DNA of 64,000 nt from Escherichia coli (lineage in GTDB: Bacteria; Pseudomonadota; Gammaproteobacteria; Enterobacterales; Enterobacteriaceae): the NCBI RefSeq assembly GCF_044647545.1, contig NZ_CP172818.1; one strand, 5' to 3'. This document shows positions 5,384 to 58,097 of the stretch, piece after piece; within the stretch, counting starts at the first letter, position 1; each line of letters opens with the position of its first letter. The notes beneath the pieces are model-generated. The model ran no database searches. It was not told where the DNA came from and worked only from the letters and a program-made list of their open reading frames with translations. The translations under genes and the position numbers were made by a program.

Positions 5384-6826
5384 ATGTCCAGAAGGCTTCG
5401 CAGAACAAAAATCGTTACCACGTTAGGCCCAGCAACAGATCGCGATAATAACCTTGAAAAAGTTATCGCGGCGGGTGCAAACGTTGTACGTATGAACTTT
5501 TCTCACGGCTCGCCTGAAGATCACAAAATGCGCGCGGATAAAGTTCGTGAGATTGCCGCAAAACTGGGGCGTCATGTGGCTATTCTGGGTGACCTCCAGG
5601 GGCCCAAAATTCGTGTATCCACCTTTAAAGAAGGCAAAGTTTTCCTCAATATTGGGGATAAATTCCTGCTCGACGCCAACCTGGGTAAAGGTGAAGGCGA
5701 CAAAGAAAAAGTCGGTATCGACTACAAAGGCCTGCCTGCTGACGTTGTGCCTGGTGACATCCTGCTGCTGGACGATGGTCGCGTTCAGTTAAAAGTACTG
5801 GAAGTTCAGGGCATGAAAGTGTTCACCGAAGTGACCGTTGGTGGTCCCCTCTCCAACAATAAAGGTATCAACAAACTTGGCGGCGGTTTGTCGGCTGAAG
5901 CGCTGACCGAAAAAGACAAAGCAGACATTAAGACTGCGGCGTTAATTGGCGTAGATTACCTGGCTGTCTCCTTCCCACGCTGCGGCGAAGATCTGAACTA
6001 TGCCCGTCGGCTGGCACGCGATGCAGGATGTGATGCGAAAATTGTTGCCAAGGTTGAACGTGCGGAAGCCGTATGCAGCCAGGATGCAATGGATGACATC
6101 ATCCTCGCCTCTGACGTGGTAATGGTTGCACGCGGCGACCTTGGTGTGGAAATTGGCGATCCGGAACTGGTCGGCATTCAGAAAGCGTTGATCCGTCGTG
6201 CGCGTCAGCTTAACCGCGCAGTAATCACGGCGACCCAGATGATGGAGTCAATGATTACTAACCCGATGCCGACGCGTGCAGAAGTCATGGACGTAGCAAA
6301 CGCCGTTCTGGATGGTACTGACGCTGTGATGCTGTCTGCAGAAACTGCTGCTGGTCAGTATCCTTCAGAAACTGTTGCAGCCATGGCGCGCGTTTGCCTG
6401 GGTGCGGAAAAAATCCCGAGCATCAACGTTTCTAAACACCGTCTGGACGTGCAGTTCGACAATGTGGAAGAAGCTATTGCCATGTCAGCAATGTACGCGG
6501 CTAACCACCTGAAAGGCGTTACGGCGATCATCACCATGACCGAATCGGGTCGTACCGCGCTGATGACCTCCCGTATCAGCTCTGGTCTGCCAATTTTCGC
6601 CATGTCACGCCATGAACGTACGCTGAACCTGACTGCTCTCTATCGCGGCGTTACGCCGGTGCACTTCGATAGCGCTAATGACGGCGTAGCAGCTGCCAGC
6701 GAAGCGGTTAATCTGCTGCGCGATAAAGGTTACTTGATGTCTGGTGACCTGGTGATTGTCACCCAGGGCGACGTGATGAGTACCGTGGGTTCTACTAATA
6801 CCACGCGTATTTTAACGGTAGAGTAA
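5384..6826 (+). CDS. pykA: Pyruvate kinase II, 480 aa
   Basis: Recognised N-terminus [19 protein letters not shown] begins at the ATG at 5384; the track's ORF 5243..6826 is over-extended upstream. Confidence 0.95.
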
Positions 6827-33105: not shown

Positions 33106-33188
<83 letters not shown>

Positions 33189-33204
33189 GTTAAGGCAATA
33201 CAAA

Positions 33205-33849
33205 TCAAAATCCAAGACTATCCAACAAATCGTCCACCTGATCCTGACTGGCTACCACACCGGCTTTGCTGGTATCGACCTGAGGTCCATTAAGCAAACT
33301 CTGGTTTTCACGTTTTGGACGCGACTCCTGTTCCGGGATGTTTTCCAACAGCACCATCAGCAACTGACGTTCGATCTCCTGAATGACATCCATCATCCGC
33401 TTAATAACCTGCCCGGTGAGATCCTGAAAATCCTGCGCCATCATGATTTCCAGCAGTTGCGCGTTAGTAAAGCTGGTATGCGCGGGGACATCTGCCAGAA
33501 ATTGCCGCGTATCTGTTACCAGTTCTCGGGCGTCGGCAAGGTCAATCGGATCGGCAAACCAGTCATCCCAACGTTGGGTTAACGCTTTTGCTGATTTCTC
33601 CATTTGATCCTGATGCGGTTGTGACGCCTCAACACTGTTCAGCGCCCGCTCCGCAGCCTGGGCGGTCATCTGCACAACATAGTACAAACGATCGCGCGCA
33701 TCGGGGATGGCTTCCGCCGCTTCGGCAATGGCCTGATCCAGCCCCAGCTCCCGCAAACTGTCGCGCAGCATACGCGTCAGGCTGCCGATGCGCGCAATGA
33801 TATCGCCAGCTGAATGCTCGTCAGCAGGTTTGATTGATGGTTGCATCAT
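33205..33849 (-). CDS. cheZ: CheY-P phosphatase, 214 aa
   Basis: [36 protein letters not shown]...; start at the internal Met. Confidence 0.95.
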
Positions 33850-33859
33850 AGTCGCATCC

Positions 33860-35313
<1,454 letters not shown>

Positions 35314-35315
35314 CG

Positions 35316-36176
35316 TTAATCCTTACTTAGCGCATACACCGTCTGACCACGCAGCGTGAAGCGGCGCTCAAGGTGGCTAAAGTTTTCAGAGTGACCCGCA
35401 AACAGCAATCCGTCGGGTTTAAGGAGCGGAACAAAGCGGCGCAAAATCTCCTGCTGGGTAGTTTGATCGAAGTAGATCATGACGTTACGACAGAAGATCG
35501 CATCAAACGGCCCCGGCACGGTGTACTGTTTCGCCAGTAAATTCAGCGGGGCAAAATCAACATAGTTCGCCAGCTCCTGACGCACGCGTACCAGCCCTTC
35601 ATGCGGTCCCGTCCCTCGCATGAAATACCGTTGCAGTTGCTGCGGCGTCAGGTTTTTCAACTCTTCATGGCGATAAATACCGCTTCTGGCTTTTTCCAGC
35701 ACTTCGGTGTCGATATCGCTGGCAAACACTTTCCAGCGTCCGGGCACGGTGCCCAATGTGTCAGCCAGCGTCATCGCAATGCTGTACGGCTCTTCGCCGG
35801 TCGAAGCCGCCGCGCTCCATACGCGATACTCGCCAGAACGGCGACGTGCGTGATCCGCGAGCAGAGGAAAATGATGCGCCTCACGGAAAAATGCCGTCAG
35901 ATTCGTGGTCAGCGAATTGATAAACGCCTGCCACTCACCGCTGTGCTGATTAGATTCCAGCAAGTTCAGGTAATGACCGAAATCCGTCAGTCCCAGCGAA
36001 CGCAAACGACGAACCAGTCGGTTGTAAACCATGTCGCGTTTATGGTCGGCCAGGACGATCCCGGCTCGTTGATAGATCAATTGACTTATCCGCCGAAAAT
36101 GCGCGTCGGAAAGCGCCAGGCGCTCGGTCATCTGTAACAATAAAGACGTTTGCCCACAGGGCAGAGATGAAGTCAT
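35316..36176 (-). CDS. cheR: Chemotaxis receptor methyltransferase, 286 aa
   Basis: [40 protein letters not shown]... Confidence 0.97.
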
Positions 36177-36194
36177 AGCGCCTTCTCAATCACT

Positions 36195-37796
36195 TCAGGA
36201 TACCACTGGCGCAATTTGTAACTGCGCCGACTCATGTCGTGCTACTTCATGCTCTTCAAGGGTAAATACCGCCACGCGCGACGAAAGATGGTCGGCCTGA
36301 TTCGCCAGTTGTTCTGTTGCCACCGCCGCTTCTTCTACCAGGGAGGCGTTCTGCTGTGTCACCTGATCCATCTGGCTGACAGCCTGTGCAACCTGCTCAA
36401 TCCCCCGCCGTTGTTCTTCCGAGGCCGAAGCAATTTCTCCCATAATGTCGTTCACGCGGGTCACCGAACTGACAATATCAGTCATGGTCGCGGCGGCGTT
36501 ATTCACCAGTTTCGAACCCTGCTGGACACGATTGACTGACTCTTCGATCAGCCCTTTGATCTCTTTTGCTGCCTGGGCGCTACGGCTGGCAAGATTGCGC
36601 ACTTCACCTGCCACTACCGCAAAACCACGCCCCTGCTCTCCGGCGCGAGCCGCTTCCACTGCCGCATTCAGGGCCAGAATATTGGTCTGGAAAGCAATGC
36701 CGTCGATAACGCTGATAATGTCGCCAATTTTTTGCGAGCTGGTGGCGATCTCCTGCATGGTGTGAGTCATGGTACTGACCTGAACACCGCCCGCCTGTGC
36801 CGTTGTCGCGGCATTTTTTGCCAGTTCCGACGCCTGGCGCGCGTTATCGGCGTTTTGCCCTACCGTGGCGGTTAATTGCTCCATACTGGCGGCCGTTTGT
36901 GCCAGCGATGCCGCCTGCTGTTCGGTACGACTTGAGAGATCGTTATTGCCTGCGACAATCTCCGCGATACCAATGTGCATCTCCTGGCTTCCCTTACGCA
37001 CATCACTTACCGTCCCACGCAAAGCCTGCTGCATGGTCTTCAGACTGGCAAAAATGGCGGTGATCTCATTGCGACCATACACCGCAATCGGACGCGCCAG
37101 ATTACCCGCAGCAATGCTGTCAAAATGGCTACCGATAATGGCCAGTGGTTGAACAATCATCTTGCGCGTCCACCACAGCGCACTGCTGATGTAGATCGCC
37201 GCAACAATAATCATGCTGATAAACACCAGCGCCGAAATCTGATAGTTACGCTGGCTTTGCGCACTGGCAGCTTCCAGCACATGGTTGATCTCCAGCTGCC
37301 AGGCCTCAAAGTTAACGTCAAACGCATTCTGTGATTCCTGCACCGGCGCAGTGAGGAAATCCGAAAGTTGATTACTTTCAAGCCAGGTCGCCTGATGTTC
37401 GAGATCGTTGTGCCAGCGGGCAAAACTTTTCTCCGTCTCTTTTTGCAACGCCCTGACGTGCTCGTTGCCCGCAGTCATCGCCATAAAACTTTTAAACAGC
37501 GTGGTGGATTGCGTCAGACTGGCGCGCGCCGTCGTCATCAACGTTTTAATGTCATCCGCCGGATAGCTAAGCGCCGTCAGAGTGCCCGCTTTGTTCAGCG
37601 CGGTACTGGCCTGTAACATTACCGCCCGAGTTTGCGCTAAAGCCGCACGTTGCTGATTGCTCTGCTCGACCTGATTCAGTCGTTGCACATCGTCGCGAAA
37701 TGCCCAAAAAGACATGCCGTTACTGCCAATCTGCAAGATCCCGCAGAGAATCAAAATTAAAAACAGCGTGGTCGAAATTCGAATACGATTAAACAT
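36195..37796 (-). CDS. tap: Methyl-accepting chemotaxis protein IV (dipeptide/pyrimidine sensing), 533 aa
   Basis: MFNRIRISTTLFLILILCGILQ...; MCP signalling domain; lies between cheR and tar. Confidence 0.93.
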   Translation of the reverse strand: MFNRIRISTTLFLILILCGILQIGSNGMSFWAFRDDVQRLNQVEQSNQQRAALAQTRAVMLQASTALNKAGTLTALSYPADDIKTLMTTARASLTQSTTLFKSFMAMTAGNEHVRALQKETEKSFARWHNDLEHQATWLESNQLSDFLTAPVQESQNAFDVNFEAWQLEINHVLEAASAQSQRNYQISALVFISMIIVAAIYISSALWWTRKMIVQPLAIIGSHFDSIAAGNLARPIAVYGRNEITAIFASLKTMQQALRGTVSDVRKGSQEMHIGIAEIVAGNNDLSSRTEQQAASLAQTAASMEQLTATVGQNADNARQASELAKNAATTAQAGGVQVSTMTHTMQEIATSSQKIGDIISVIDGIAFQTNILALNAAVEAARAGEQGRGFAVVAGEVRNLASRSAQAAKEIKGLIEESVNRVQQGSKLVNNAAATMTDIVSSVTRVNDIMGEIASASEEQRRGIEQVAQAVSQMDQVTQQNASLVEEAAVATEQLANQADHLSSRVAVFTLEEHEVARHESAQLQIAPVVS

Positions 37797-37841
37797 CAAC
37801 GCTCCCCATCAGGCGGCAATGACCGCGTTAGTAAATACTCG

Positions 37842-39503
37842 TCAAAATGTTTCCCAGTTTGGATCTTGTTCAGCAATTCGCAGTCGTGGCTGTGCCGGTG
37901 GTTGCTCACTGGCAGGACGGGATGGTGTTTGCGGTTTATTGGTGAGTGGGCTGGCTGTCAGACGGAACGCGGAAACCGCTTGCGTTAAACGACTCGCCTG
38001 TTCTTCCAGCGCAGCTGCGGCGGCAGCTGATTCCTGCACCAGCGATGCGTTCTGTTGCGTGACGCGATCCATTTCCGAAACCGCCAATGCGACTTGATCG
38101 ATGCCACGGCTCTGTTCATCCGATGCTGATGCAATCTCGCCCATAATGTCAGTCACGCGGGTGACAGCATTGACGATATTGTTCATTGTTTCCCCGGCGC
38201 TTTCGACCAGCACCGAACCGGTATCAACGCGCGAGACGGAGTCTTCAATGAGGGCTTTGATCTCTTTTGCCGCCTGGGCGCTGCGACTGGCAAGATTACG
38301 CACTTCGCCCGCCACCACGGCAAAACCACGGCCTTGTTCACCCGCTCGCGCGGCTTCAACCGCGGCATTCAGCGCGAGGATATTAGTCTGGAAGGCAATA
38401 CCGTCGATAACGCTGATAATGTCGGCAATTTTCTTCGAACTATCGGCGATCTCATGCATCGTTTTCACTACGCCATCCACCACTTTGCCGCCGTGCTGGG
38501 CGGTGTCGGAGGCACTTTGCGCCAGTTGCGAGGCCTGGCGGGCGTTATCGGCGTTTTGCTTCACTGTCGCGGTGAGCTGCTCCATGCTGGCGGCAGTTTC
38601 TTCCAGCGCGGATGCCTGCTGTTCAGTACGGGAGGAAAGATCGGTGTTGCCCGCCGCAATTTCACGGGTACCGGCATAGATGGCATCTGAACCTTCGCGC
38701 ACATGAGTGACGGTGTCAGTCAAAGAGCGTTGCATATGTGAAACACTCTGCGCCAGGTCGCCCATTTCACTGCGCCCGTCAATGGTCAGGGTATTCGCCA
38801 GGTTACCACCGGCAATTTCGCGAATATGCGCAATAATTTTTGCCAGCGGTGTAAGCAACATACGGCGAATGCCGTACCACGCCACCAGCAGAATCAATAT
38901 CACCACCAGCGCGATAACCGCCAGTTGCCACTGGGCAAATCGGTAATCATCTGCGTTGTCAGTGACGATATCGCGATACAGTTTTTCACTGCTGAGGGCG
39001 TACTGAGCAAACGCTTCGCCCATTGCATTTTGCATTCCCTGGGTTGGCTGAGCGAAATAAGCTCCAGTATTGCCATAATCAAGATAATCAATCAGTTCAG
39101 TTAACGCTGTGTGATAGTTTTTATATTTTTCATCAATATTACGACTGGTAGCGACCATTTCAGGTAACGGTGCCATGCTTTTGAATTTTTTATAATGCGT
39201 CGCTGCCTGGGCCAATGTTTTCCTGGCGCTATCGAGCAATTCAACTTTGGCATTACTTTGCTGATTGGATGAATCCATCATCATCCGCACCGCTGAACGA
39301 CTCAGGTTAATGCGCGTTTGCAGCATTAAATCCCATGTAGACGTCAGCTCGCCCTGCTGTTCCCGTAATTGATTGGAAACCACAAAGCTCTTCTGGCTAT
39401 GGTGAAGGGAAGAAAAAAACAGACTGCCGGAAATAAGCTGTAACAGTGCGAATACCCCCAGCACCATTACCAACAGCGTGACTACGCGGATACGGTTAAT
39501 CAT
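37842..39503 (-). CDS. tar: Methyl-accepting chemotaxis protein II (aspartate/maltose), 553 aa, C-terminal NWETF
   Basis: [23 protein letters not shown]... ending ...QDPNWETF; start at the internal ATG 39503. Confidence 0.95.
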
Positions 39504-39534
39504 AAGGCACCTTCCTGAAAACAAGTTGATCTCG

Positions 39535-39561
39535 TTATCGGCAAGGAAGGGGGAAACTTTA
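39535..39561 (-). promoter_or_regulatory. Sigma-28 (FliA) class 3 promoter for the tar-tap-cheRBYZ operon
   Basis: Minus strand reads TAAAGTTT, 11-nt spacer, GCCGATAA, matching the sigma-28 consensus, about 30 nt upstream of the tar ATG. Confidence 0.8.
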
Positions 39562-39592
39562 TTGCTGATGCCACCCGCCGCGAAATTGAAAT

Positions 39593-39621
39593 AAAAAACC
39601 CGATGCGCAGATCATCGGGTT
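39593..39621 (-). terminator. Rho-independent terminator downstream of cheW
   Basis: Hairpin cccgatg...catcggg followed on the minus strand by a T-run. Confidence 0.65.
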
Positions 39622-39647
39622 CATTTCAATTGAGGAAATCGGGAGAA

Positions 39648-40151
39648 TTACGCCACTTCTGACGCCGCGCTATCTAACAGCGCCATCTCTTCGCTGTTCA
39701 GCAGTTTTTCGATGTTCACCAGAATCAACATCCGGTCGCCCAGTGCGCCCAGTCCAGTGAGATATTCGGTTGAAAGCGTCACGGCAAATTCCGGTGCCGG
39801 ACGAATTTGCTCCGCCGTCAATGAAAGCACGTCTGAAACGCCGTCAACCACGATGCCGACCACCCGCTGTCCGAGATTCAGGACGATAACTACCGTGTTG
39901 TCGTTATAGTCCACATCCACCTGGCTGAACTTAATTCGTAAGTCAACAATCGGCACAATAACGCCGCGCAGATTCGTGACGCCTTTGATAAACGCTGGCG
40001 TGTTCGCAATCCGTGTCACCTGATCGTAGCCACGGATCTCCTGCACTTTCAGAATATCAATACCGTACTCTTCATCACCAAGGGTAAATACCAGAAATTC
40101 CTGGCCTGACGGCTCGCTGGCCAGCTTTGTTACATTCGTCATACCGGTCAT
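39648..40151 (-). CDS. cheW: Chemotaxis coupling protein, 167 aa
   Basis: [42 protein letters not shown]... Confidence 0.97.
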
Positions 40152-40171
40152 ATTGTTACCTTTTTACTCAT

Positions 40172-43063
<2,892 letters not shown>

Positions 43064-43067
<4 letters not shown>

Positions 43068-43951
43068 GCTTCCTCGGTTGTCGTCTGTTGTTGCGGATTT
43101 TTCACCGCACGCACATGCTCTTCCAGTTCAATAAACGACGGACGTTCGCTGGAATAGAGCGTTTTGCGACCAAACTCAACGGCGATAGGCGGTGCGTAAC
43201 CGTTCAGATTAGATAGCAGTGTGACTTTGACGCACTGCATCATTTTGCTGGTTTCGGCGCTTTTCTGACGTAAAACACTCGCTAATGGGGAAATAAATCC
43301 GTAAGCCAATAAAATGCCGAGGAAAGTCCCCACCATCGCATGTGCGATAAGCGCCCCCAGCTCGGCGGCAGGACGATCGGCTGAACCTAACGCGTGAACG
43401 ACCCCCATTACAGCCGCGACAATACCAAACGCCGGAAGTGAGTCCCCGACCAACGCCAGACTGTTCGCCGGGACTTCTGCCTCGCTTTCGTGCGTCTCAA
43501 TCTCTTCATCCATCAGAGCTTCGATTTCGAAGGTGTTCATGTGACCGCTGATAATCAGGCGCAGATAATCGACGATAAATTCAAGCATGACGCTATCCGC
43601 AAGGATGCGTGGGTAGCTGGCGAAGATCTCGCTCTCACGGGGATTTTCAATATCGCGTTCCAGCGAAAACATCCCCATCTGCCGCGATTTCGCCATCAAC
43701 CGATAAAGCAGAGCCAGCAGATCCATATACATTGCTTTGGTGTATTTGGAGCGACGAAACAGCAACGGCAGCGCCTTCAGCGTGCCTTTAATCGCTTTGC
43801 CATTATTGCCGACGATAAACGACCCAATCCCTGCACCGGCAATAATCACCAGTTCAGCGGGTTGATAGAGTGCTCCAAGGCTTCCACCGGTCATCAAATA
43901 ACCGCCGAAAACTGTACCGAGAACAACCAGGTAACCTAATAAGATAAGCAC
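43064..43951 (-). CDS. motA: Flagellar stator proton-channel protein MotA, 295 aa, GTG start
   Basis: [23 protein letters not shown]...; first codon is GTG; stop overlaps the motB start. Confidence 0.95.
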
Positions 43952-44008
43952 GACATCATCCTTCCACTGTTGACCATGACAGGATGTTCAGTCGTCAGGC
44001 GTTAACGC

Positions 44009-44041
44009 GCGATTGGGGCAAAAAAAAGCAGCGGTACGTCG
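44009..44041 (-). terminator. Hairpin plus T8 between flhC and motA (flhDC terminator or attenuator)
   Basis: gcagcggtaacgacgtaccgctgc followed by tttttttt on the minus strand, about 37 nt after the flhC stop. Confidence 0.6.
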
Positions 44042-44077
44042 TTACCGCTGCTGGAATGTTGCGCCACACCGTATAAG

Positions 44078-44656
44078 TTAAACAGCCTGTACTCTCTGTT
44101 CATCCAGCAGTTGTGGGATAATATCGGCAGGATTCTGGGAAAGTTTACGTCTTTTTACTGCCCGGGATGGCGGCTGACATAAGCTGCAGGCAAAGCTGCC
44201 AACAGGCTGGTGAGCGTGGGTAATAAAATTGCCGCCGCAGCAGTTGCAGCTGGAAAGTTGCAGTAATCCACTTTCAACAAACCGTACCAATGTCCAGGCA
44301 CGGGTTAATGCCAGCAGCGGTCCGTCTTCTGCTTGCGGGCACTGTTCAAGGTATAAACGGTAGGCTTTGATCACCGCATCGACGCCATTACACAAGCCGG
44401 TTTTCAGTAAAAACTGCCATGCGTTACAGAACATTGAAGCATGAACGTTTTGTTCCCAGGTCATAAACCAGTCGGTTGAGAATGGCAGCATGCCTTTCGG
44501 CGGTGGGCTTCCGCGTAGTTCTTTATAGAGTTTTATCAGGCGTCCGCGACTTAACTGTGTTTCGCTTTCCAGCATCTGCAAACGAGCGCCCAGGGTGATC
44601 AATTCCATTGCCAGCTGAATATCCCGCGCTTCCTGAACAATGCTTTTTTCACTCAT
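44078..44656 (-). CDS. flhC: Flagellar master regulator subunit FlhC, 192 aa
   Basis: [33 protein letters not shown]...; zinc-binding Cys cluster. Confidence 0.97.
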
Positions 44657-44658
44657 GA

Positions 44659-45009
44659 TCAGGCCCTTTTCTTGCGCAGCGCTTCTTCAGGCTGATTAAC
44701 ATCATTCAGCAAGCGTGTTGAGAGCATGATGCCGGTATGAATTTGCTGGAGATCGTCAACGCGGGAATCTTGCGTCAATTGAGTAATCGTCTGGTGGCTG
44801 TCAAAACGGAAGTGACAAACCAGTTGATTGGTTTCTGCCAGCTTAACCATTTGCGGAAGAGTCAGTGCCGCTAACGTTGTCGCCATTTCTTCATTTATGC
44901 CGAGACGAAACATAGCGGACGCTTTGTCCTGAACAATCAGACGCTGTGCAAGTAGTAAATATGACAAGTTGATGTCATAAATGTGTTTCAGCAACTCGGA
45001 GGTATGCAT
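44659..45009 (-). CDS. flhD: Flagellar master regulator subunit FlhD, 116 aa (119 aa if the upstream MGI Met is used)
   Basis: [38 protein letters not shown]... Confidence 0.95.
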
Positions 45010-45270
45010 TATTCCCACCCAGAATAACCAACTTTATTTTTATGCGGTCTCACCGCACCCCGTGATGTCGCCGGGAAGCCCCGGTAAAAAATAATTAGCA
45101 TTAGAATAGTTGCGATAAGCTGCAATAAGCAGAACCACCTTTTTGGTTTAATAAGTCCTTACAAATAGAAAGGGGTCTTTACACTTATCTAAGATTTTTC
45201 CTAAATCGACGCAACTGTACTCGTCACTACACGCACATACAACGGAGGGGGGCTGCGATTTTCAATAATG

Positions 45271-45286
45271 TGTGATGCAGATCACA
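45271..45286. promoter_or_regulatory. CRP-binding site in the flhDC promoter
   Basis: Perfect palindrome TGTGATGCAGATCACA about 260 nt upstream of the flhD ATG, matching the CRP half-sites TGTGA/TCACA. Confidence 0.75.
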
Positions 45287-45961
45287 CAAAACACTCAATT
45301 ACTTAAATTTAACACAAATCATCAACAAAAATACAACTTCCATTCAATCTCTTTATTAATACACCTTCCACCATCCACATATAAAACACATTCGAATTCT
45401 TACACCACCCTCAACTAAAGGACACAAAAACAAACCAACACCTCAAAAACACCACATACACTAAACAAGCAGCATCACCCATAAATGTATAAGTCATACT
45501 TTTGTTTTGGGTGTATTTCAATCTGTTAAAAAGTTTTTCGCAACGCTAGCAAGCAAAAATGAAACAGGAATAATCGAAATGGGATGTTGCGCACAGTTAA
45601 AATAACTCACCGTAAATAATCATCTGCTATAAATAATCACTTTCATGCAATACCCGATAAGCTATTTTTAAACAGACACTTACCGCACAACAAACTAATT
45701 AAATACAAAGAAAGGCAACAATCAACCTAATGTTAATAAAATGTTTTGCATATATTAACCACTTGTTTAATATGGGAAATCAGTACATTATTTTCTTATA
45801 AATACAGTTGAAATCATATGATCACCGAGAGTGATTGATTAATTATCTTTACTAATGACCAGACTAATATTTACCTGTTTTACTGAGTTGGGATTGCGTC
45901 GTTTCTCCATTAGGAGTAAAGCTTTAATGTCACCTGCAGTTCACAGAATAAGGAACAGGTT

Positions 45962-46396: not shown

Positions 46397-49749
<3,353 letters not shown>

Positions 49750-57815: not shown

Positions 57816-57943
57816 ACGCTTTTCCTTGTGGATCTCAACTCGCCAGCACCTATCTTATATGCCGGTCCGTATCAGAGATACTTTTTGAGTGGCTTTGCCG
57901 GCGATTAAAAATTAAGGAGGGTGTAACGACAAGTTGCAGGCAC

Positions 57944-57965
57944 AAAAAAACCACCCGAAGGTGGT
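57944..57965 (-). terminator. Rho-independent terminator downstream of the tRNA operon
   Basis: Hairpin ccacccgaaggtgg followed by T7 on the minus strand. Confidence 0.6.
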
Positions 57966-58010
57966 TTCACGACACTGCTTATTGCTTTGATTTTATTCTT
58001 ATCTTTCCCA

Positions 58011-58097
58011 TGGTACCCGGAGCGGGACTTGAACCCGCACAGCGCGAACGCCGAGGGATTTTAAATCCCTTGTGTCTACCGATTCCACCATCCGGGC
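58011..58097 (-). tRNA. leuZ: tRNA-Leu (anticodon UAA)
   Basis: Reverse complement reads GCCCGGATGGTGGAATCGGTAGACACAAGGGATTTAAAATCCC...GGGTTCAAGTCCCGCTCCGGGTACCA, 87 nt with long variable arm. Confidence 0.97.

Follow-up and report, generated by a model that had tools for sequence, protein, structure and literature searches.

What lies between cheW and tar, and on which strand it functions, is the question raised by this locus in the window, that is, the whole 64-kb stretch of DNA that was analysed. It is almost certain that the interval represents the boundary of two class-3 flagellar operons, where the predicted terminator of cheW is followed by the FliA (sigma-28) promoter Ptar.

The cheW–tar junction and its sigma-28 promoter

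With at least 95% identity, the 201 nt around the junction were found in 5,373 of 5,426 complete E. coli genomes, annotated as cheW on one side and tar on the other. In the annotation of matching E. coli genomes, flhDC is followed by motAB-cheAW and this in turn by tar-tap-cheRBYZ, which confirms the genes flanking the operon boundary that an earlier note, made from the sequence alone, had placed here between motAB-cheAW and its neighbour tar-tap-cheRBYZ. The features of the junction, from cheW toward tar, are listed below.

39648..40151, minus strand: cheW coding sequence, 167 aa plus stop, from the list of open reading frames and annotated as cheW in identical or near-identical E. coli; last gene of motAB-cheAW, with the stop codon TAA at 39650-39648
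39585..39630, minus strand: outer inverted repeat rich in A/T, with the arms ATTGAAAT at 39630-39623 and ATTTCAAT at 39592-39585; it lengthens the helix of the terminator and is paired in the MFE structure
39589..39622, minus strand: predicted intrinsic terminator of cheW, with the stem GAACCCGATG / CATCGGGTTT, the loop ATCTGCG, and a T6-A-T3 tail
39620-39613 and 39605-39598, minus strand: hairpin arms ACCCGATG and CATCGGGT, with the loop ATCTGCG between them
39598-39589, minus strand: T6-A-T3 tail
39561-39554, minus strand: -35 box of Ptar, TAAAGTTT, exact consensus
39553-39543, minus strand: 11-nt spacer of Ptar, CCCCCTTCCTT, which differs from MG1655 by one C-to-T change
39542-39535, minus strand: composite -10 box of Ptar, GCCGATAA, exact consensus
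39527, minus strand: A, the +1 of tar, with its position transferred from the published K-12 Ptar (Goldman 2015)
39526-39504, minus strand: remainder of the 24-nt tar leader, with the Shine-Dalgarno sequence AGGAAGG at 39516-39510
37842..39503, minus strand: tar coding sequence, 553 aa plus stop, from the list of open reading frames and annotation; first gene of tar-tap-cheRBYZ

The consensus of FliA-dependent promoters was given by Hollands et al. as TAAAGTTT-n11-GCCGATAA (PMC2859248). All 16 specified bases of Ptar agree with it without a mismatch, and the two boxes and the 11-nt spacer had been read from the minus strand correctly to the base. This is the sole exact match in the window. The gap between the -10 box and the ATG of tar (39503-39501), read on the minus strand, is 31 nt, close to the earlier estimate of about 30 nt. 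The genes driven by Ptar, tar-tap-cheRBYZ, are late flagellar and chemotaxis genes, as expected of a class-3 promoter.

Matches to a consensus can arise by chance, and this general caution is the only ground for regarding the Ptar motif as a coincidence devoid of function. Against it, an exact match of 16 bases is expected only about 3e-5 times in 128 kb by our arithmetic. When up to three mismatches were allowed, four matches were observed in the window while 0.52 were expected, and none of 100 shuffles reached this count. The conservation across genera described below also speaks against a chance match, the published ChIP-seq and transcription data already refute it, and its probability is negligible.

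By ChIP-seq of K-12 MG1655, Fitzgerald 2014 mapped a FliA site, TAAAGTTTCCCCCCTCCTTGCCGATAAC, at tar-tap-cheRBYZ with FAT 57, and the deletion of fliA in K-12 reduced tar expression from 251 to 0 (PMC4183435). Both results agree with the reading of this motif as a FliA promoter in the earlier note, which had also named the mapping of the transcription start as a check. Goldman 2015 printed Ptar as TAAAGTTTcccccctccttGCCGATAAcgagatcA, where the capitalised final A is the +1, 8 nt past GCCGATAA, which places the K-12 start at the position of 39527 (PMC4604602) and answers that check. In vitro as well as in vivo, cloned Ptar gave transcripts only when sigma-28 was present (Goldman 2015, PMC4604602). 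A discordant result came from genomic SELEX with the RpoF holoenzyme, a method of low resolution with an arbitrary cut-off: the tar promoter was without a peak, and a 4.3-fold peak was seen inside cheA, about 1 kb away.

K-12 Ptar, the model sigma-28 promoter of the "meche" operon, has the same boxes, 11-nt spacing, +1 context, and leader as the window. From the end of cheW to the start of tar, 160 of 161 nt are identical between the window and MG1655, and the sole difference is a single C-to-T change in the spacer, which reads CCCCCTTCCTT in the window and CCCCCCTCCTT in MG1655. The FliA occupancy, the FliA dependence, and the +1 of Ptar are established in K-12, and by this identity they would hold in the window strain as well. 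Among the four E. coli lineages compared, both promoter boxes are invariant, and the variation consists of two spacer positions, one base of the terminator loop, the length of the T-run, and two flanking intergenic bases.

Other class-3 FliA promoters, such as motA (inside flhC), tsr, fliC, flgMN, and yhjH, resemble tar in having two boxes, an 11-nt spacer, and FliA occupancy in ChIP-seq. They deviate from the consensus by at least one base, whereas tar does not; among the 52 mapped FliA sites, the perfect consensus is found only at tar (PMC4183435). The promoters of aer and some other genes require CRP, whereas CRP does not bind the tar fragment (Hollands et al., PMC2859248).

The other three matches to the sigma-28 motif in the window are as follows.

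44121..44147, minus strand: TAAACTTT-N11-GCCGATAT, inside flhC, with two mismatches; promoter of motAB-cheAW and also the MotR promoter
47526-47552, plus strand: match in otsA, whose string is a weak published FliA ChIP-seq site, FAT 2 (PMC4183435)
5635-5661, plus strand: match with three mismatches, CAAAGTTT...GGGGATAA, in which GGGGATAA replaces GCCGATAA

The string at 44121-44147 is listed as the FliA ChIP-seq site (flhC)motAB-cheAW with FAT 101 (PMC4183435), and this promoter starts the operon that is closed by the cheW terminator. Three of the four matches in the window are thus mapped in-vivo FliA sites, since their strings stand in the ChIP-seq table. The fourth, at 5635-5661, falls within the pyruvate kinase gene, as located by the offset to the annotation of a relative, and its string has no entry in the published FliA ChIP-seq list (PMC4183435). 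With about 0.5 such matches expected and no ChIP-seq entry, it was rejected as a FliA promoter and is probably a chance match.

The predicted cheW terminator and the C0465 family on the opposite strand

The hairpin behind cheW begins 25 nt past the stop codon, and the terminator spans from about 25 to 60 nt past it. The terminator scan recognized 10 pairs, of which 5 are G-C, around a loop of 7 nt. As RNA the hairpin folds with -19.4 kcal/mol (z = -4.6), and none of 200 shuffles folds equally well. The clean terminator hairpin that had been noticed from the sequence is therefore canonical by both scan and fold and is a strong prediction. The promoter had been described as following directly after it; the order is right, and the adjacency is approximate, as about 27 nt lie between the end of the T-run and the -35 box. 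No cheW 3′ end was retrieved from the 3′-end mapping supplements that were searched, and we infer from the scan and the fold that the hairpin probably terminates most motAB-cheAW transcripts.

Under strict criteria, a hairpin followed by a T-run was found after cheW in 43 of 81 loci, while 1.1 were expected. The hairpins after cheW are non-homologous between genera. Because the arrangement recurs without homology, termination after cheW looks conserved in function and turning over in sequence. In an O157-like strain, 7784 (locus L003, 301-499), the T-run of the cheW terminator that corresponds to window 39593-39598 has four Ts, not six. This shorter T-run could lead to weaker termination and more read-through into tar.

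Nearly the same interval carries, on the opposite strand, a match to an Rfam family, which the earlier note had missed.

39551..39628, plus strand: match to the sRNA C0465 (RF00116), 111.6 bits by cmscan with the gathering score at 40, full length (78/78)

The match runs antisense across the -35 box, a portion of the spacer, and the terminator of cheW. C0465 and the pair of Ptar and the terminator thus share nearly the same interval, and the hairpin of one is the reverse complement of the other, but they belong to opposite strands. This raises the alternative that the functional unit here is the plus-strand sRNA C0465, produced as an independent transcript, and that the interval is conserved through selection on the C0465 RNA. 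The full-length match to RF00116 with 111.6 bits is what such an RNA would give, C0465 was included in the count of 83 K-12 sRNAs, and the hairpin of the window can also form on the plus strand, with -17.9 kcal/mol. C0465 is lost in two Shigella strains. The bit score is high only through identity to the E. coli intergenic sequence, and in the fetched stretch of the current MG1655 record tar and cheW are the only annotations, C0465 being absent. C0465 has no entry in the published flagellar RNA-seq supplements that were searched.

The structure of the RNA was compared on both strands. The plus-strand hairpin is followed by CATTTCAATT, not by a U-run. In seven Escherichia sequences, the shared helix has 102 of 105 standard pairs when read as minus-strand RNA and 96 of 105 when read as plus-strand RNA, and each of the seven folds more stably as the minus strand. 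The better fit of the minus-strand helix is explained by A-to-G changes: in one strand they produce G-U pairs, in the other A-C mismatches. Two of the six pairs in the middle helix of C0465 break in divergent Escherichia, where no double compensatory change is seen, and covariation support for the C0465 structure was not found among the seven sequences, a small sample of two clades.

The position of the match also argues against selection on C0465. The conserved -10 box lies outside it, its 5′ end falls within the variable spacer, and at the loci inspected outside Escherichia the DNA following cheW is unrelated to the Escherichia junction. A consensus scan of the plus strand recognized no sigma-70-like site upstream of 39551, where a weak promoter or one for another sigma factor could escape such a scan, and the sole plus-strand match lies inside C0465. 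Overexpression of C0465 left biofilm, swimming, swarming, and fimbriae unaffected, thus giving no motility or biofilm phenotype. The promoter and terminator reading is favoured over C0465. Since the sample covers only two clades, C0465 as the selected feature is graded as unlikely and no more strongly than that.

Considering these results, what RF00116 describes may be the reverse complement of Ptar and the cheW terminator, and not a functional RNA, a point that matters to users who take Rfam matches as evidence of sRNA genes. Expression of C0465 was reported in early stationary phase only. Another idea, also improbable, is that C0465 is a genuine transcript initiated in the Ptar spacer, with the complement of the cheW hairpin serving as a bidirectional terminator, and that it damps Ptar firing or the formation of the cheW 3′ end in early stationary phase. 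Early stationary phase is about the time when class-3 genes peak, and the reported timing of C0465 would fit that peak. If this idea were true, C0465 would act via transcriptional interference or antisense pairing, and there would be RNA-level control at the boundary of the chemotaxis operons.

Insertions, islands, and deletions around the junction

The earlier note had taken the regulatory architecture of this region to be intact. This claim should be limited to the cheW–tar junction: the control region of flhDC, at the top of the cascade, contains an insertion, and fliA is outside the window. The insertion is 173 bp long (window 45307-45479) and lies between uspC and flhD, within the region that controls the flagellar master regulator and about 300 bp upstream of the flhD ATG. 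Its plus strand is almost free of G, with 78 A, 55 C, 35 T, and 5 G, and contains TTCGAATTC, which includes BstBI and EcoRI sites. It was found in none of the 5,426 complete E. coli genomes, and in none of the plasmids, phages, and metagenome or viral contigs searched. Neither a target-site duplication nor an Rfam match, a promoter, a terminator, or a notable fold was recognized. The possibility of a G-to-A converted (purine-collapsed) copy was examined and rejected, as it had no support in the window or in metagenomes. The insertion resembles synthetic DNA of a three-letter alphabet or an artefact.

A run of 44 A is located in the spacer between cheZ and flhB (window 33107-33150), and reads T44-G-T6 on the sense strand of cheZ and flhB. 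It is the sole homopolymer of at least 9 nt in the 64-kb window, and this allele occurs in none of the 5,426 complete E. coli genomes. The closest relatives (99.9% identical) carry at this position an insertion of 2,386 bp that includes a dGTPase-like gene; in K-12 the position is occupied by a REP-like element. The run may be an artefact of the assembly, a scar left by engineering, or a real tract where a deletion was joined. Together, the 173-bp insertion and the A44 run resemble artefacts or engineered DNA more than they do mobile elements.

FDAARGOS_497 is identical to the window over the 201-nt query; collinearity with it was rejected outside 33151-45306 by base-by-base comparison. The insertion with the dGTPase-like gene and a restriction island belong to FDAARGOS_497, whereas the window is without both. 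In the closest relatives the island of about 14.5 kb follows yecA (NZ_CP033850.1, about 4467900-4482400), and its annotated part encodes a type I restriction subunit, a DUF262 protein, and an M48 peptidase. In the window, a stretch of about 125 nt (about 57942-58066) finds its match at each end of the relative's island, which is what an empty integration site would give. The difference at yecA is ordinary variation of the accessory genome.

In E. coli MB50 (locus L005, NZ_CP073949.1, 2248-3011), an IS1 is present 65 nt upstream of the tar ATG. The strain has lost Ptar and everything else that runs from the uspC side over flhDC and motAB up to and including cheAW, and tar is left without a promoter. 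This is a case of IS1-mediated loss of motility genes.

Conservation of Ptar in Enterobacteriaceae

Scanning with CheW yielded 80 loci from some 25 genera of Enterobacteriaceae, and in 19 usable loci a tar homologue was found by tblastn with Tar downstream on the same strand. In these 19 loci and the window, the Ptar motif is present with no or one mismatch (20/20), while none of 4,000 shuffled upstream regions scored below three mismatches. The spacer is 11 nt long in all 20, and its sequence is unrelated between genera. Invariant in all 20 are GCCGATAA and the T preceding it. Only the last base of the -35 box varies across genera, and the box is unchanged in the seven Escherichia sequences. 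The A at +1 is kept in all 18 loci that share the register, 18 of the 20 loci have 31 nt between the -10 box and the ATG, and the cross-genus alignment revealed a conserved A.GgTG block 5′ of the tar ATG. The tar promoters of Salmonella, Citrobacter, Kosakonia, Cedecea, Atlantibacter, Kluyvera, and Pseudocitrobacter are written as TAAAGTT[T/A/C]-N11-GCCGATAA, and they share the 31-nt gap to the ATG, the +1 A, and the Shine-Dalgarno sequence with the window.

In Escherichia, cheW and tar are separated by 144-145 nt, and in S. enterica diarizonae by 238 nt. The distance measures 257-375 nt in Atlantibacter, Cedecea, and Kosakonia, while Citrobacter and others have 1.6-1.9 kb. The gap of Citrobacter braakii, which was inspected at locus L009 of the scan, contains a convergent gene and REP-like palindromes. 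At the scanned loci of Enterobacter, Leclercia, and Lelliottia, the 2.5 kb next to cheW hold no tar homologue. The cases with a long gap or without tar come from loci L009, L013, L018, L026, L040-L042, and others. The boundary of the cheW and tar operons is a recurrent insertion point. Since the distance varies by genus, the tight junction of terminator and promoter is specific to Escherichia; since the promoter stays with tar despite this variation, Ptar is an independent unit.

This independence bears on another explanation, in which most tar expression would come from read-through that starts at the motA promoter and crosses a weak cheW hairpin, with a minor role for the sigma-28 motif. As FliA is required by both operons, read-through and Ptar activity cannot be told apart by the fliA-deletion data alone; moreover, the efficiency of the hairpin rests on prediction, and the T-run of the O157-like strain is shorter (four versus six). 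Nevertheless, Ptar cloned alone drives sigma-28-dependent transcription (PMC4604602), and the tar motif has its own separate FliA ChIP-seq peak (PMC4183435). The promoter is also kept in genera where tar lies 1.6-1.9 kb from cheW, even with the convergent gene in between in Citrobacter braakii, and the cheW hairpin is a canonical terminator by scan and fold. It is very unlikely that read-through is the main source of tar transcripts.

In the favoured reading of a terminator followed by Ptar, transcripts of motAB-cheAW would end after cheW at the Rho-independent terminator, a GC-rich hairpin with a U-run. About 27 nt beyond it, RNA polymerase with FliA (sigma-28) would read Ptar, and initiation at A39527 would produce a 24-nt leader with AGGAAGG ahead of the tar ATG. 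FlhDC activates fliA, FliA is restrained by FlgM, and class-3 promoters such as Ptar fire once FlgM has been exported by the hook-basal body. As FliA thus becomes active only when the hook-basal body is complete, tar-tap-cheRBYZ would be switched on late.

Ptar is real, conserved, and already well characterised; it is an ordinary promoter, and nothing new is added to it here. It serves as the reference sigma-28 promoter in biochemical and synthetic-biology work, and the value of the present case lies in calibration, as an operon boundary was correctly read from raw sequence. The functional bases of Ptar are under purifying selection across genera. In the cross-genus comparison, selection acts on the two boxes, their exact spacing of 11 nt, the +1 A, and the fixed distance of 31 nt to the ATG, but on neither the sequence of the spacer nor the cheW junction.
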